Shown here: positions 40,131 to 52,800 of the stretch, one piece after another
Layout of the letters: each line of letters begins with the position of its first letter
Position numbering within the stretch: position 1 is the first letter of the stretch
Virus record (IMG/VR): IMGVR_UViG_3300047510_001990
Coordinates: 1 to 61,318 of that record
From: a virus
Lineage: Duplodnaviria > Caudoviricetes
Reading direction: 5' to 3' (one strand)
DNA length: 61,318 nt
Notes under the pieces: model-generated
What the model saw: the letters and a program-made list of their open reading frames with translations, nothing else
Told to the model about the DNA's origin: nothing
Database searches by the model: none
Made by a program: the position numbers and the translations under genes

Positions 40131-40607
40131 ATGGCTGACCTATCCGGCTTTGACGCATCACAAGTACCCGAACAGACCGAGTTTTCCGCGCTGCCCGAGG
40201 GGCAATACATCGTCATGGCCACGGCTTCGGAGATGAAGCCGACCAAGAAGGGCGACGGCGCTTACCTGCAAATCACCTTTGAGGTGATCGACGGCACCTA
40301 CAAGGGCCGGAAGCTGTGGGCGCGTCTGAATCTGAAGAACAGCAACAAGACCGCCGTGGATATTGCCCAGCGCGAGCTGGCCGCAATCTGCCGCGCCGTG
40401 AATGTCATCAAGCCCAACGATTCCGCCGAGCTGCATAACCGGCCGCTTCTTATCACGGTTGGTGTCGAGATTGACGACCGCAACCGCGAAAACAACACGG
40501 TCAAGAAGTACGAGCCGACCAGCGCGGCCGGCACGGTTGGATTCGCGCCGGCTGCTGTCGTCGCACAACAACCGGCAGCGCCCGTTGTCCCGCCCTGGCA
40601 GAAGTGA
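40131..40607 (+). CDS. DUF669 ssDNA-binding protein
   Basis: LPEGQY, YLQITFEVIDG.YKGRK.W..LNL, PPWQK tail. Confidence 0.85.
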   Translation: MADLSGFDASQVPEQTEFSALPEGQYIVMATASEMKPTKKGDGAYLQITFEVIDGTYKGRKLWARLNLKNSNKTAVDIAQRELAAICRAVNVIKPNDSAELHNRPLLITVGVEIDDRNRENNTVKKYEPTSAAGTVGFAPAAVVAQQPAAPVVPPWQK

Positions 40608-40614
40608 GGCGGAC

Positions 40615-40869
40615 ATGACAGCAAACATGAAAAGGACAGATGCCGACATTGATGCGGTCATCCACGACGAGGCGTACTACGTCTTTCCGGGCACTACCGT
40701 CACGGTGTGCTGCCTGACCCTGAAAAACGGGTTCAGCGTGATCGGGGAAAGCGCGTGCATCAGCTTTGATTATTTCGACCGGGAAATCGGGCAAAAGATC
40801 GCCCGAGAAAACGCTCGCCAAAAGATTTGGGCGCTCGAAGGCTATCGAATCAAGTCCGAGTCGGTTTAA
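40615..40869 (+). CDS. Phage Gp49-family protein
   Basis: TVCCLTLKNGFSVIGESAC..FDREIGQKIA...IWALEGY. Confidence 0.85.
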   Translation: MTANMKRTDADIDAVIHDEAYYVFPGTTVTVCCLTLKNGFSVIGESACISFDYFDREIGQKIARENARQKIWALEGYRIKSESV

Positions 40870-40907
40870 GCAAAAACTTTTTACCCTAACAAAACGAAAG
40901 GCAATAA

Positions 40908-41129
40908 GTGAATCCGAATCAAGTAAATATCAACTACACCCTGAACCTCGATCAAGTGAATCTGATTGTCACCGCGCTTGGCAAGCTGCCGTTCGAGCAA
41001 GTGGAGCAATTTGTTGTGGCCTTCCGCAGCGTGGCAGTGAAGGCGTTGCAAGAGGCCCAAGAAGCGGCCAAGGCGGCGGAACCCGATGCAGTTGCGGCCG
41101 AGGGGATGGTTGAGGCTGGTGCGGAGTAA
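40908..41129 (+). CDS. Hypothetical protein, 73 aa
   Basis: ALGKLPFEQV motif. Confidence 0.7.
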   Translation: MNPNQVNINYTLNLDQVNLIVTALGKLPFEQVEQFVVAFRSVAVKALQEAQEAAKAAEPDAVAAEGMVEAGAE

Positions 41130-41130
41130 A

Positions 41131-41410
41131 TAGCGCACGCCGACCCTCCCTCGGTGTGATCGCGTCAAACCCTGACGTGCGCTGTATGGGTGACAGCCGG
41201 AAAGACGGCACCAACACGCATGGGGATTCGGGCATTCACTTGCCCATCCGGTAAATCCGCAGCGGAGGGGAATCCCCAGCCGTGTTGGTGAATGCGCAGG
41301 CTGATGCGCGAAGCATGTAAGCGGTTGAGGCCGACGGGCGTAGATCATGGGCGGGTGAAAAAGACCGCAAACAAATACCGCAAGCCGGAGTTCAGTACCG
41401 GCCACCAACT
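41131..41410 (+). ncRNA. Structured RNA unit 1 ending in a tRNA-like domain (41284-41410)
   Basis: Three-way junction, GTGACA-GCCG-GAAAGA-CGGC hairpin, long stem, GTTGGTG/CACCAAC acceptor and GCCGG/CCGGC T-like arm. Confidence 0.65.
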
Positions 41411-41592
41411 AGGCGCCAGACAGCCGAAACTCGAAGGAAACGGAAGGGGCAACTAACCCTTGGTCTGGAAAAGTTGTGACACCCCGGAATAGACGGGGAC
41501 TAACAAGCAGGGGGATTGGCTAGTCAGGGAAATCCAAGCGGGTACATGCCACTGGCCCGCCCATACAGGAATGCCCACCAGTCCCCCTCCTT
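41411..41592 (+). ncRNA. Structured leader of RNA unit 2 (same scaffold as unit 1)
   Basis: CCAGAC/GTCTGG junction, GTGACA-CCCCG-GAATAGA-CGGGG hairpin, AGGGGGATTGG/CCAGTCCCCCT stem. Confidence 0.6.
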
Positions 41593-41667
41593 GTTGGTGT
41601 AGCTCAAACAGGTAGAGCACGCGCCGCTTCCAAGCGCCCGATGCCGGTTCAAGTCCGGCCACCAACA
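41593..41667 (+). tRNA. tRNA or tRNA-like gene with aberrant anticodon arm (TCC/Gly-like, 9-nt loop)
   Basis: Acceptor GTTGGTG/CACCAAC+A, D arm GCTC..GAGC, T arm GCCGG-TTCAAGT-CCGGC; anticodon arm GCGC-CGCTTCCAA-GCGC. Confidence 0.75.
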
Positions 41668-41692
41668 CCCACCATCAACACGGAGCGAACGA

Positions 41693-41962
41693 ATGGATTA
41701 CGGAAAGGAAGTAGCGAAGATGCTGGAACACCTCGGGCAACACCCGTCACCGGAAGCACTGACGTATTTCGTTCGTTGCCTGTCATTCGGACTCGCGCAC
41801 GCCACCACGTTCGTCAATACGATCGAAGTGCAGGAAGAATTGCTGGAGTGCATCTTCGATGCCACCCGCAGCGAGGCCAAGGCGGCGTTCAAAGAAACGC
41901 ACCCAATGACCGACACCGAGTTTCTTCGGGATTACTTTAACCCGGAGAAATTCAATGGCTGA
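41693..41962 (+). CDS. Hypothetical protein, 89 aa
   Basis: GGAG SD; helical. Confidence 0.7.
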   Translation: MDYGKEVAKMLEHLGQHPSPEALTYFVRCLSFGLAHATTFVNTIEVQEELLECIFDATRSEAKAAFKETHPMTDTEFLRDYFNPEKFNG

Positions 41963-43031
41963 TATTTCGGAATTCACGGAAAGCCCGATCGTCACTGCCA
42001 TCTACGATGCATACGAGAAACGCTACGCCGCCGAACCAGCGCGCACCTACCTGGGCGCCTCGATCATCGGCAAAGAGTGCGCCCGCGCCCTTTGGTATGA
42101 CTTCCGCTGGGCCAGCAAGGAACGGTTTGACGGCCGCATGTACCGGCTGTTCCAGTCGGGGCACTTAGCCGAGCCGCGCCTTGTGGCTGACCTGCGCGCC
42201 ATCGGTGTCGAGGTCTATGACGTTGATCCGGCCACGGGGCGGCAATTTGGGTTTGCCGACCACGGCGGGCACATGCGCGGCCACATGGACGGGTGCGCTC
42301 GCAATGTCCCGGACGGCGGCCGACAGTGGCATGTGCTGGAGTTCAAGACGCACTCGGAAAAGTCTTTCAAGGATTTGACCAAGAAAGGCGTGGCCGAGGC
42401 CAAGCCGCAGCATTACGCGCAGATGCAGTGGTACATGGGGCAATCCGGCATGGAGCGCGCCCTGTATGTGTCGGTGAATAAAAACTCCGACGAGATATGG
42501 GCCGAGCGCATCAAGTTTGACCGGTTGTATTTCGAGCGCCTTCAGGCCAAAGCCGAAAGCATCATTTTCGCCGCCGAGCCGCCCGCGCGCATCAAGGACG
42601 ACCCCAAGTATTACCTGTGCTCGTGGTGCCCGCACAAAGCGGTATGCCACGGCCACAAGACCCCGGCCCTGTCCTGCCGCACTTGCGTTCATGCCACGCC
42701 CGAGCACCAGGGCGACGGTCGGTGGTCATGCGCGAGCAAAAAGATAGACATTCCGGTGGTGATGCAGCGTACCGGGTGCCCTGAACACCTGCCCCTGCCC
42801 TTCCTTGTCACCTACGCCGACCCGGTGGATGCCGGCGATAGCTGGATCAAGTTTAAGCGCAAGGACAACGGCCGGCCGTTTGTCGTCACCACGGGCAAGG
42901 TGCCTTTCGCGCCCGACGATCTCCCGCTGTATTCCAGCGCGGAAATCAGCGCCGCCGCCGACCACAAGGCTATCTGCGACCAAGACATTGAGATTTTGAG
43001 AACAACATTTGGCGCAACGATTTCAGGTTAA
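41955..43031 (+). CDS. Cas4-like PD-(D/E)XK exonuclease
   Basis: GASIIGKEC.RALWY, GH..E, GHMDG, LEFKT, HYAQMQWYM, CSWC.....C. Confidence 0.85.
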   Translation: MADISEFTESPIVTAIYDAYEKRYAAEPARTYLGASIIGKECARALWYDFRWASKERFDGRMYRLFQSGHLAEPRLVADLRAIGVEVYDVDPATGRQFGFADHGGHMRGHMDGCARNVPDGGRQWHVLEFKTHSEKSFKDLTKKGVAEAKPQHYAQMQWYMGQSGMERALYVSVNKNSDEIWAERIKFDRLYFERLQAKAESIIFAAEPPARIKDDPKYYLCSWCPHKAVCHGHKTPALSCRTCVHATPEHQGDGRWSCASKKIDIPVVMQRTGCPEHLPLPFLVTYADPVDAGDSWIKFKRKDNGRPFVVTTGKVPFAPDDLPLYSSAEISAAADHKAICDQDIEILRTTFGATISG

Positions 43032-49810: not shown

Positions 49811-52800
49811 CTTGAGCACTCTGGTTTCCTTGTCCAAGCCCTGATTGCGGATCCGCACCTTGATCTGCGCGCCAGTGATCTGGATGGGTGTGTCCGGGTT
49901 CGCCCGGTTCCACTCATTCAGTCTCGCCTGCGCCTTGTCGATCATGGCCTGATCCTTGTCGGTGATGCCCCGCACCCACTGGTCGAGGATGGCCGATTCG
50001 GTGCGGCGTTGCAGCGCCACGTCCTGCTGAATCGGCATCGTCTTGCGGGTGAGCTGGGCAACGGTCGTGGGGTTGAAACCGACTGACTTGATGGCCGCTT
50101 CGCCGGCTGTCACCTCGGTCGTCTTGCGGCCTACCGCGTCGGTCGCGTAGCCCTTGTCGGCCATATCAAGACCGGACAGCACATCCTTGACGGCTTTCGG
50201 GGCAAGGTTGGTGAGCGCCTTCTTGGTGTTGCCCTCGGTAAATGCCTCGTAGGCGTCGCCAATCTGCGTTGCCATGCCGGCCGCCGGCCCGAAGATTTCG
50301 GCCACGTTGCGGCTCATCAATTCCTTGTCCGAGGGTTTCAGGATGCCGGTGCCTGGAATCAGATTGCCCACGCCCAGGCGGCCGGCCACGTCGAGGGGCA
50401 GTTGCGAGGAAATGCCGTACAGAAACAGGTCGCCCCCGGTCTTGCCAAGAATCTCGTGGGCCAGCCGGCGCTTATTGCGGCGCATGTTGGTATCCAGCCC
50501 GAACATTTGCCCGATGGTGTCGATCAAGTCATCGAGGTCTTGGGCGAATGGCAAGCCTTCCTCGCCAGCGGCCAGCATCAGCACAGCCAGCATCATCAGC
50601 GCCGCCCGCTTGCCTTCCGGCCCGCCGCGCTTCCACATGCGGGACAGCAGTTCGACGTACATGATGCTGAACTGCTTGAAGGTGAGCAGGGTTCGGCCAA
50701 AGGTGCCTCGCGCCCAATTGGGGCGATTCACCTTGTTGTAGATGCCCTGCGTTTCATTCACCGCCCGGACGGCAAACGCGAAGGGGTCTTTCTCGCCCTT
50801 GGCCTTGGCCACTTCCCACGCGGCAATGAACGTGAGCTTGCGGTTGAATTTTTCCGCCAGCGAGAACATCGACCCCCACAGGGTCAGGAAGGCATTGATC
50901 CGGGCGCGGGCGCTTTCGCTCCCGGCCTTGATCTTGCCGCCCAAACCCGGAATCTTGGCCAGCGTATTGGCAAGGCCCGATGCCACGCTCTGCGCACCCT
51001 GGCTATACAGGTGGAAGATTTCCTGAGCATCGACCACGCCCTCTTGGCTGGCGCGCTTGAGTGCGTCGCGCAGTTCGGTGTCGGTGATCTGCTTCTTGCC
51101 CAGCGCATACGGCATCGCCTTGGCAATCGCGGCGGTCGCCCGGCCCACGCCATGCTGCGACAGATACGGCGCCGTCATCATGATCGGCTGCGTCATATTG
51201 ACCATTGCCGCCGCCACCGACCCCCCGAGGAACCACGCGAACATCACCGACGAAATAGGCGCACCGGGGTCGTTGGGGTCATTCATGAACTTCTTGAGGC
51301 TCATCGCCTCATCCAGCACGTCGCCCTTTTCCTTCGGAATGAACTTGATGGCGTTGTTCAGGTCGCGCAGGTAGTAGCGTTGCGCCGCGAACCGGGCATT
51401 GCTGGTGATGAAGTTGGACAGCACGCGCGGCATGTCCTCGCTGAAGCCGGCGGTGCCCTTACGCTCCAGCCTGCGCTTGAGAGCCGATCGCTCAGACAGG
51501 GCAAGCTGGTAATACTTCTTAATCGTGTCCCCGGCGCCGATGGCATCGGAGAACAGCGCCAGCGTTTCGGGCGAGATCCCGGCATACAGCTCGTGCGCGG
51601 TCTGGCTCTTGACCCCGGTTGTCACGCGCAGATCGTCGCGGTCTTTGTAAAGCGCCTGCTTCTCGTTGCGAACGGAGATCGCCTCGCCCTCGGTTTCGTA
51701 CTGGCCATAAAACTCGGTGAGCGAATCCCCGTTTTCATCGCGCAGCAAGTTGCCAGTCTCGGGGTCGATGGCCTGCACCGTCACCGTGTATTTGCCGAAC
51801 CGCATCAAGGGCGCGTAGCCGGCCGCCTTCAGGTTCTTAGCCGTGGTGAAAATCTTATCCACGGTACGCTGGGTGTTGATGTAAGCCTCCAAGCTCGCCT
51901 CAAGCTGCGCCTTCTGCTCCTCGTTGCCGGCGGTTTCGGCTGACTTGATTGCCGCCTTGAGCATCTTGATCTGCTTACCCAGCTCCATCGCCAACACGGC
52001 TGGGGCCGATTGCGGGTTGTCGATCAAGCCGCGCCGGATGACCTTGGGCACGAACCCCTGCGCCATTGAGAAAGCCTCGGCGGCGGCAAGCTCGTCCAAG
52101 CTGGCGTCGATGGCTGCGCGCGCCTGTTTGTAGAGCGCGATCCCGGTGTCGGTCAGCTTAAACTGGTTGCGCAAGTCGTCATCGCTGAACACCTTGCCCT
52201 GCATCACGTCCTTGCCGTACAGCGTGCCGGCAAAAATTGCCTTGGTGGCACCGTCAATGTCGGCGTTCGCCTGCTTACCCTTCCACACGGTTTTCAGGGC
52301 CGACTTCACGTCATCCACGCGGGGAAGCACGCCGGGGGCCAATTCAGCGGGCCGGATGGCGGCAATCGACACATGGTTCTGCATCGCGTTGGCAAAGCCG
52401 AACACGCGCCCATAGTCGCGGTCTTTCAGCGCCTTGTGATACTGCGTCGAAAGGGTCTTGTTGAACGCGCCAAACGTCTTGAGGCTTTCATTTCGGTTGC
52501 CGAAAAACTGCACGACGTTGTTTTGCACCTTGCGGGCAATGTCGTTGTAGGTCTGCTCGCCCACCGTCGCCCCGGTCACGTCCTCCGCCACACGCTCGGC
52601 CATCATCATGGCGCCCGGCTGGAACACGCCCTCGCCCTTCATCACGGCATCCAGCGCCTTCAGAATCGTCGCATCGGAGCGCAGGCCGAACACCGCTTTG
52701 GCGCGCTGCATGAACTCCTTGAACCACTGGATTGCCGTCTTGACCCACGAACCCTTGGCAGCAAACCGGCCGGATAAGATGCTGGTGGCATTGACCGCCC

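Follow-up and report, generated by a model that had tools for sequence, protein, structure and literature searches.

The virus record IMGVR_UViG_3300047510_001990, complete at 61,318 bp with terminal repeats and analysed here over its whole length (the window), contains a gene-free stretch of 563 nt (41130-41692) that holds two RNA units, a tRNA-like scaffold RNA (unit 1) and a tRNA (unit 2), each preceded by a hairpin that shares a strand with it. On the 5' side this stretch is bordered by a small open reading frame (ORF) at 40908-41129, itself preceded by AAA_24, DUF669 and gp49/66-family genes, and on the 3' side by an 89-aa ORF followed by genes for a PD-(D/E)XK nuclease, a MazG-like protein and a helicase; the neighbourhood is a replication/recombination module, far from the packaging genes. 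The features that concern us most are given below, with the first base of each unit counted as +1, the leader numbered backwards from -1, and L numbers denoting related loci.

41209-41229, + strand: 5' arm of hairpin 1; CACCAAC (41209-41215) pairs with +7 to +1 of unit 1 and 41216-41229 pairs with the leader; predicted duplex -34.9 kcal/mol.
41230-41269, + strand: variable insert of hairpin 1; a homologous insert with compensatory changes occurs in L165, and different inserts in L025 and L003.
41270-41290, + strand: 3' arm of hairpin 1; leader (41270-41283) plus the 5' acceptor strand GTTGGTG (41284-41290).
41284-41409, + strand: unit 1, tRNA-like scaffold RNA; 7-bp acceptor-like stem, D-like arm, 75-nt central insert, T-like arm.
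41403-41409, + strand: 3' acceptor strand of unit 1, CACCAAC.
41499-41519, + strand: 5' arm of hairpin 2; ACTAAC (41499-41504) pairs with +6 to +1 of the tRNA, with one G.U.
41520-41577, + strand: variable insert of hairpin 2; the same insert is found in unit 2 of L003.
41578-41598, + strand: 3' arm of hairpin 2; leader plus +1 to +6 of the tRNA; three mismatches to the family consensus.
41593-41667, + strand: unit 2, tRNA; 3' acceptor strand at 41660-41666, discriminator A41667.

The original prediction held that the 5' acceptor strand of each unit has two mutually exclusive partners, one upstream and one at the 3' end of the unit. All six strings on which it relied were located exactly where it had placed them: in unit 1, CGTGTTGGTG (41281-41290) can pair with CACCAACACG (41209-41218) or with CACCAAC (41403-41409), and in unit 2, CTTGTTGGT (41590-41598) can pair with ACTAACAAG (41499-41507, with one G.U) or with CACCAAC (41660-41666). 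A repeat search returned longer arms of 21 nt around both upstream pairings (41209-41229/41270-41290, 90% complementary, and 41499-41519/41578-41598, 86% complementary), and these arms together with the exact pairings bear the claim out. The 3' arm passes from the leader into the 5' acceptor strand without interruption, over +1 to +7 in unit 1 and +1 to +6 in unit 2, so that the hairpin base and the closing helix of the unit cannot coexist. Direct repeats between the two units identify them as paralogues, and the 3' arm of hairpin 1 is an exact match to TCCCCAGCCGTGTTGGTG, the consensus of the wider family described below. When the chance level was set by dinucleotide shuffles of the upstream 150 nt (n=1000), the duplex over leader and acceptor reached -29.5 kcal/mol in unit 1 (-19.2±2.5 after shuffling; 3/1000 shuffles as good) and -27.6 kcal/mol in unit 2 (-21.9±2.9; 39/1000). 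The acceptor bases of unit 1 taken alone were likewise above chance, 17 of the 1000 shuffles being as good.

The description of the units as tRNA-like needs to be divided. Unit 2 is a tRNA by both Rfam (RF00005, 54.1 bits at a cutoff of 29) and ARAGORN (tRNA-Glu(ttc), 41592-41671), while unit 1 was called by neither, with no Rfam match even at E<=10. The D-like arm of unit 1 (TGCGC AGGCTGA.. GCGCG) and its T-like arm (GCCGG-AGTTCAGTA-CCGGC, with a 9-nt loop) nevertheless show compensatory changes among 12 distinct copies, whose inserts range from 43 to 156 nt. Contigs of other metagenome runs join the ends of unit 1 (41273-41311 and 41378-41409) across different middles, one joint running from 41309 to 41382 with 26 other letters between and another with 36; these contigs, from four runs and flagged as probably DNA, display no starts or ends. 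By sequence, unit 1 looks like a natural ‘tRNA scaffold’ carrying variable cargo. Both units carry sequence features that would fit a candidate RNase P substrate: U at -1, G at +1 pairing with position 72, and 7 bp of acceptor stem adjoining a T arm. In unit 1, however, the T-like loop is non-canonical, and most cassettes of the wider family are not tRNA-like.

Unit 2 itself departs from the usual 7-nt anticodon loop on a 5-bp stem in having a 9-nt loop, CGCUUCCAA, with a C.C mismatch atop the anticodon stem. Among its relatives the tRNA body is conserved and the anticodon loop (window 41620-41640) is different in every one: the loop has 8 nt and no ARAGORN identity in L025 (3639-3717), the anticodon is CAC in L003 (3641-3713) and ACA in L002 (1308-1383), and 7-nt loops also occur. 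This variation suggests a non-standard decoder or a non-decoding tRNA. RNAs of the C4 antisense/P4 CI type, Y RNA/YrlA and transfer-messenger RNA (tmRNA), permuted forms included, gave no Rfam match at gathering score window-wide and none at E<=10 in 41000-41800, and ARAGORN found no tmRNA; nor was any Rfam family other than tRNA matched at the element in 15 + 18 + 7 related loci. The order of small hairpin and ACCAAC first, then the 5' strand further on, is reminiscent of a permuted gene. A permuted or two-piece tRNA-like RNA or tmRNA was nevertheless rejected, ARAGORN and Rfam being silent and a complete 3' half following in each unit.

We collected 80 loci via the neighbouring nuclease and compared them with a 571-nt stretch of the window. 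The element was present in L025 (= L084), L003, L002 and L014, with a distant version in L082/L083, and 11 units from 8 sources (the window, L025, L003, L002, L014, L082, L101 and L115) comprised at least 6 distinct leader sequences. The duplexes of L002 and L014 are looser and gapped, whereas in the other sources a near-continuous helix extends into the acceptor strand. At -2 a C-G pair in unit 1 of the window is replaced by A-T in L025 and L003, a compensatory change, and the small hairpin that precedes the upstream strand also covaries (GCCG/CGGC in the window, GCTGGT/ACCAGC in L003). The ~105-nt hairpin insert of unit 1 in L003 is the insert of unit 2 in L025, and the hairpin inserts of the window (41230-41269 and 41520-41577), L025 and L003 behave as exchangeable cassettes.

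These hairpins belong to a much larger set. Viral contigs were scanned for exact motifs from the tRNA start and from each of the two arms, and every scan returned at least ~120 stretches. Modules were defined by no more than 4 mismatches to the two consensus arms plus GTTG, keeping the forward orientation, a definition that fixes +1 to +4 and leaves out divergent modules, unit 2 of the window among them; at least 190 such modules were counted in at least 150 viral contigs or loci, with 1 to 4 per locus. In each, a hairpin with constant arms around an insert (median arm span 78 nt) is followed by a cassette closed by GTTGG(TG)...(CA)CCAAC, usually with AACCTA thereafter (median 91 nt, range 43-313). 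Among the matches listed, 107 of 150 distinct contexts have GTTGG after CAGTCCCCAGCCGT, and the sequence beyond is highly diverse. An arm pattern recurs in which 6 bp are followed by a mismatch, 3 bp, a 2x2 loop and a last run of 7 bp, and U at -1 and G at +1 are invariant in the family motif. The hairpin 3' arm comprises a leader part (-14 to -1) and the first 4-7 bases of the cassette, be this a tRNA, a tRNA-like scaffold or another folded RNA. Only 2 of 157 cassettes were called tRNAs by ARAGORN, which makes ‘tRNA processing’ too narrow a frame, and no Rfam 15 family other than tRNA matched family members in 15 + 18 loci. Each ‘anti-acceptor’ appears, on sequence comparison, to be the basal extension of a conserved leader hairpin that stands before every acceptor-stem-closed cassette of a modular non-coding array.

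Two further cassette types were noted. In L090, L103 and L163 a conserved ~45-nt insert (..GCTGGCATATATTGAAACCAGCTAGTCGGCAGACGAA..) lies in the D loop and a 4-5-nt loop takes the place of the anticodon loop. A non-tRNA cassette, GAAAGCGGATGCTG ... CAGCGAGTA, recurs in L233, L262, L228, L300, L214 and Alcaligenes phage CASP1 (L433, ~745-800); the GAA/AGUA strands beside its closing stem resemble a loop E/sarcin-ricin motif. A 19-mer scan of bacterial genome contigs returned 10 stretches, of which 7 lie in coding sequence of unrelated bacteria (two of these being one site in overlapping loci), and conservation across phyla was rejected as the number of stretches is about that expected by chance (hand estimate). 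True modules in bacterial assemblies were confined to 3 short contigs of metagenome-assembled genomes (2 Burkholderiales, 1 labelled Flavobacterium), and host assignment is weak for this reason.

Both pairings are kept in this family. For the acceptor helix, the 3' strand was chosen blind to +5 to +7, which was possible for 101 of the 190 modules and replaced an earlier choice of the best-scoring NNNCAAC, and pairs were counted with custom scripts: 278 of 303 cells at +5 to +7 were paired, compared with 253.4±3.3 after shuffling of partners, a value reached in 0/2000 shuffles. The acceptor helix covaries clearly. For the upstream helix, 88 modules whose retrieval left the upstream strand unconstrained were paired at +1 to +6 in 82, 76, 70, 87, 81 and 72 cases, respectively, and at +7 in only 35, a possible toehold. 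Over all 190 modules, G.U outnumbered A.C by 126:5 for the upstream pairing at +2 to +6, an asymmetry which argues that the upstream strand pairs as RNA. The concern that only one of the two pairings might be conserved is thus answered by a covarying acceptor helix and by an upstream pairing maintained over +1 to +6.

Complementarity of this kind could in principle be a mere by-product of recombination, the shared frames (..CCAAC / GTTGG..) serving as homology for shuffling so that pairing follows from the reuse of frames and has no role in RNA. Inserts have indeed been swapped between positions, as in L003 and L025, frames of the unit 1 type enclose different inserts, and two-sided covariation at +5 to +7 is missing within the family. 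Such a history would not account for the G.U excess at the overlapping positions, nor for the 125 of 151 modules that have no cassette just upstream and still pair at 5 or more of 6 positions, which shows the upstream strand to be more than a closing strand left behind; in unrelated cultured phages with different frame sequences, moreover, the upstream partner tracks the acceptor strand (see below). We consider this explanation quite improbable. The first-in-array modules also bear on a related candidate, a tandem tRNA duplication in which the upstream CACCAAC would be the 3' strand of a decayed tRNA. It was rejected for the window lineage, where no 5' partner of the upstream CACCAAC is conserved: the sequence that would have filled this place, GCTGGTG (41115-41121), lacks conservation in L025, L002 and L003. 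Further, these 125 modules keep the upstream strand.

The arrays occur in widely different settings. A terminase gene follows the array in many of the 150 loci (large subunit in 59, Sf6-type small subunit in 35), and arrays usually have RusA or DUF968 genes on one side and the genes for small/large terminase and portal on the other, where by position they would be the leader of a packaging/late operon. In L091 a terminator comes right after the cassette. The place just upstream of terminase genes might point to an element that acts as DNA, its inverted repeats serving as a site of packaging, recombination or cruciform formation. The array of the window lies far from packaging genes, however, and the G.U over A.C asymmetry, the tRNA and the compensatory changes in the cassettes all point to RNA, so that a DNA-level role appears extremely unlikely. 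A different proposal sees the conserved hairpin base as a binding site for some factor of phage or host, or as a guard for the transcript's 5' end, its overlap with the cassette being incidental. In favour of such a platform, the arms are strongly conserved in sequence across contigs of 43-60% G+C, and 14 of 151 first modules lie directly behind a sigma-70-like promoter, which would make the hairpin 5'-terminal there. Yet the neighbour analysis of family loci revealed no dedicated RNA-binding partner gene and no consistently co-occurring protein family beyond the terminase, portal and nuclease genes of the operon, and the versions in cultured phages keep the helix, not the sequence; we hold this proposal to be very unlikely.

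Short blastn queries located the unit-1-type RNA in unannotated gaps of cultured phages, mostly inside tRNA clusters. Carriers were Yersinia phage PY54; Klebsiella phages ST16-OXA48phi5.2, 1611E-K2-1 and FBKp34; Salmonella phage STGO-35-1; Aeromonas phage ST4; Alcaligenes phage CASP1; Pseudomonas phages ZC08, ZC03 and IME307; and Xanthomonas phage Xoo-sp13, with a partial copy. No Rfam family was found on these elements, and neither the window's own intergenic region nor the L236 array had a match in cultured phages. The 5' strands in the carriers vary (TGTGGTG, GATGGTG, GCAGGTG, TTGGATG, TGGTCTG and GTTGGTG), and the 3' acceptor strand follows the changes in 8 of 10 carriers. A significant upstream helix over leader and acceptor was present in 6 of 11 (0-7/500 shuffles as good), reaching over +1 to +5 in PY54, +2 to +6 in CASP1, +1 to +5 in ST16-OXA48phi5.2, +1 to +4 in STGO-35-1, +1 to +7 in ST4 and +1 to +2 in ZC08, and the upstream sequence is different in each of the six. 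Here the upstream partner changes with the acceptor strand, which by sequence amounts to the two-sided covariation unseen in the family set. In ST4 and ST16-OXA48phi5.2 the acceptor helix is imperfect and the upstream helix is strong.

Some side observations and one discarded candidate belong to the same search. Compared with ZC08, ZC03 (L444, 300-460) has a tRNA-Arg flanked on one side by a truncated duplicate of the leader and the beginning of unit 1 and on the other by the complete unit-1-type RNA, an arrangement suggestive of tRNA insertion with target duplication. Upstream of the unit-1-type RNA of STGO-35-1 (L435, 160-300) there is a sub-threshold match to permuted tmRNA (29.4 bits, cutoff 47). 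Salmonella phage SeSz-2 and ~35 related records matched over just 17 nt, on the antisense strand of coding sequence, and were set aside as chance hits.

Folding in silico was consistent with an upstream helix that is made first. The minimum free energy (MFE) fold of 41130-41700 includes both upstream helices (z = -3.44; 0/100 shuffles fold as well), and the predicted ensemble energies were -87.8 kcal/mol with the upstream helix forced and -83.9 kcal/mol with the acceptor forced in unit 1, compared with -73.7 and -70.5 kcal/mol in unit 2, such that the alternative folds of the window are predicted to lie within ~3-4 kcal/mol of each other. In the family, the upstream conformer was favoured in 110 of 169 modules, with a median ddG of -1.4 kcal/mol. 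Stepwise MFE folding of growing transcripts had the 5' strand paired upstream once it was made, at every tested length, so the original claim that this helix forms first during transcription holds up in silico. The upstream helix is still the MFE choice at full length, and displacement was not seen in the nearest-neighbour model; direct-path barriers calculated with findpath were 15.8 kcal/mol for unit 1 and 8.6 kcal/mol for unit 2.

Conformers that are nearly isoenergetic in the window and the family, separated by barriers of 9-16 kcal/mol that could be modulated, might suit a regulatory switch, a strong form of the gating that the original prediction put forward. A cellular or phage signal (a protein, a tRNA, temperature or the level of an RNase) would shift the balance between helices, and RNase P/Z cleavage, together with what becomes of the surrounding early mRNA, would be switched accordingly. 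The units lie inside an operon, and the sequence around them shows neither a promoter-like site (40500-42200) nor a terminator-like site on the + strand (40500-41900, including 41130-41692); this too would suit a switch. The usual marks of a riboswitch or attenuator were not seen, there being no Rfam cis-regulatory match and no terminator of the kind just mentioned; the exchange of partners is confined to the acceptor strand, and no ligand-binding domain, terminator or sequestration of a ribosome site is coupled to it. Contexts as different as a replication module here and the leader of a terminase operon elsewhere fit a generic folding or processing device better than a sensor, and a signal-responsive switch appears rather improbable.

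Taken together, the sequence comparisons and folding models indicate two mutually exclusive helices that both appear to be under selection, are predicted to be close in energy and would be ordered by transcription. On this basis, and by analogy with other RNAs, we propose with a probability of roughly 45% that a transient leader-acceptor helix, resolved by strand displacement, guides or times the folding and excision of the cassette. The upstream helix would act as a transient placeholder that holds the G/U-rich 5' strand, and keeps it from mispairing, during transcription of the cassette body (43 to >300 nt). The genuine 3' strand would then displace the upstream helix, starting at its weakly paired inner end (+6/+7), and only then could RNase P, as the simplest candidate, release the closed cassette by cutting at U(-1)/G(+1). 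The outcome would be a built-in folding/processing checkpoint ordered by transcription, and not necessarily a switch that responds to a signal.

Several observations weigh against the proposed handover. (i) In unit 2 the 6-bp overlap alone is at chance level (619/1000 shuffles as good), and its pairing rests on the contiguous helix and on conservation. (ii) Within the family the upstream strand does not covary at +5 to +7 (227/303 cells paired, 220.2±3.9 after shuffling, 117/2000 shuffles as good), variant positions being paired in 15/29 cases with the upstream strand and 20/29 with the acceptor strand; pairs at +1 to +4 are uninformative in this respect since GTTG is fixed by definition. (iii) The 89 modules retrieved with AGACGCATGGGGATT have a G.G mismatch at +1. 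(iv) Tertiary structure of tRNA is not part of the nearest-neighbour model, for which reason the true balance may tip towards the cloverleaf. (v) With so few cassettes called tRNAs, recognition of most of them by RNase P is an assumption. (vi) The leader helix is not significant in FBKp34 (368/500), IME307 (240/500), 1611E-K2-1 (486/500), ZC03 (56/500) or the incomplete element of Xoo-sp13 (61/500); being absent or not significant in 5 of 11 carriers, it is something that the unit-1-type RNA can do without.

The upstream hairpin might instead be a double-strand processing site, its ~20-bp base with the conserved 2x2 loop being cut by an RNase III-like enzyme, with no exchange before cleavage and with the -1/+1 junction spanned only since the enzyme needs duplex on either side of the cut. 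Phage T7 RNase III sites lie between genes, and the hairpins described here likewise lie between genes or cassettes; the 21-nt arms of both units, the recurrent arm pattern and a helix continuous across -1/+1 in 82 of the 88 unconstrained modules would all be expected of such a site. A helix that reaches only to +2 in ZC08 and is absent in several cultured phages would not, and the inserts of the hairpins are conserved, covarying RNAs, suggesting products rather than discarded stalks. Cleavage of this type is in our estimate unlikely, though less so than the rivals considered above.

A more far-reaching version of the proposed handover, doubtful at present, is a natural RNA ‘display and release’ system, present in phages of many lineages, in which conserved leader hairpins alternate with tRNA-type scaffolds and both carry exchangeable payload RNAs. 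The leader would at first hold the acceptor strand of its scaffold and then give it up by strand displacement, so that payloads would fold and be cut out in a programmed order. The payloads would then be effectors, aimed, for example as decoys or guides, at host tRNA enzymes or defence nucleases.

Further features of the gene-free stretch are as follows.

41131-41189, + strand: structured leader of two small hairpins within an outer stem, directly after the stop codon of ORF 40908-41129; present in the MFE fold.
41190-41209, + strand: GTGACA plus small hairpin GCCG-GAAAGA-CGGC, preceding the first upstream strand.
41410-41481, + strand: spacer domain with stem CCAGAC...GTCTGG; not in L003.
41482-41498, + strand: small hairpin CCCCG-GAATAGA-CGGGG, preceding the second upstream strand.

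The leader segment 41131-41189 (GTGATCGCGTCAAACCCTGACG and flanks) is near-invariant in 4 aligned relatives, and the sequence around it varies. The submodule of GTGACA and small hairpin also stands before hairpin 2 and in L014. A further copy in the window, at 51989-52006 on the - strand, was dismissed as a chance match, lying inside a gene for 3823 aa and having no partner arm. Upstream of the stretch, the DUF669 ORF (40131-40607) and the gp49/66-family ORF (40402-40869) overlap by ~200 nt as listed; the gp49/66 domain begins at residue 79, so the true start of this ORF is probably further downstream.

Known systems share parts of this design. RNase III processing hairpins occur in phage early transcripts and rRNA operons, and the elements resemble them in having a ~20-bp stem with internal loop between functional RNAs; in contrast to the present hairpins, no strand shared between such a stem and the acceptor stem of a following RNA is known. 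The phage T4 tRNA cluster encodes stable RNAs, species 1 and 2, and a synthetic ‘tRNA scaffold’ is used for expressing RNAs. By description, not sequence, unit 1 compares well with both, in that it keeps acceptor, D-like and T-like arms with a variable insert replacing the anticodon arm, and, as with the T4 RNAs, unit-1-type RNA lies among tRNA genes in cultured phages; it differs in its 9-nt T-like loop and in a leader hairpin that has no counterpart there. Regulatory phage RNAs with an acceptor-like closing stem and processing by RNase P include the C4 RNAs of P1/P7 and the CI RNA of P4. They too are small phage RNAs excised from an operon leader, with a closing stem of 5' and 3' ends, but the window element matches no Rfam family other than tRNA, and antisense target sites were not identified.

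tRNA-like processing signals in longer transcripts are familiar from the mitochondrial ‘tRNA punctuation’ model and from the TMERs of murine gammaherpesvirus 68 (MHV68). The t-elements of plant mitochondria are described as tRNA-like processing signals inside longer transcripts (PMC1920247). In all of these, as in the phage arrays, tRNA-shaped elements lie between RNAs or genes, and presumed RNase P/Z cuts give the neighbours their ends; none of them is known to have a conserved upstream strand in competition for the 5' acceptor strand, and cleavage in the phage is a proposal. The closest precedent for ordered folding that we compared is the signal recognition particle (SRP, 4.5S) RNA of Escherichia coli, in which a non-native 5' hairpin is reported to be resolved co-transcriptionally by toehold strand displacement (Yu et al., 10.1101/379222). 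There, as here, an early 5' helix sequesters a strand later needed by a distant 3' partner, the helices are mutually exclusive, and a wobble or weak end can act as toehold. In SRP RNA, however, the early hairpin is inside the mature RNA, whereas the predicted phage hairpin is a separate conserved leader module with a variable insert of its own, repeated for each cassette.

By sequence, the design appears to be a variant of tRNA-like processing elements and leader-guided RNA folding, within a widespread and unannotated family of phage RNAs. A description of the family did not come up in full-text searches of the literature, and it may be an anonymous entry among the 8,495 IMG/VR candidates of PMC10690425, as far as the accessible part of that paper goes. 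Our analysis identifies a large RNA family with no match in Rfam 15 other than tRNA, and the question can move to the bench because the unit-1-type scaffold sits in tRNA clusters of cultured phages. If the proposed reading is true, a conserved leader strand in competition for the 5' acceptor strand would show that strand displacement, ordered by transcription, controls the excision of tRNA-shaped RNAs in nature. This would inform the view of polycistronic tRNA/sRNA processing in phages and the engineering of RNAs on tRNA scaffolds.

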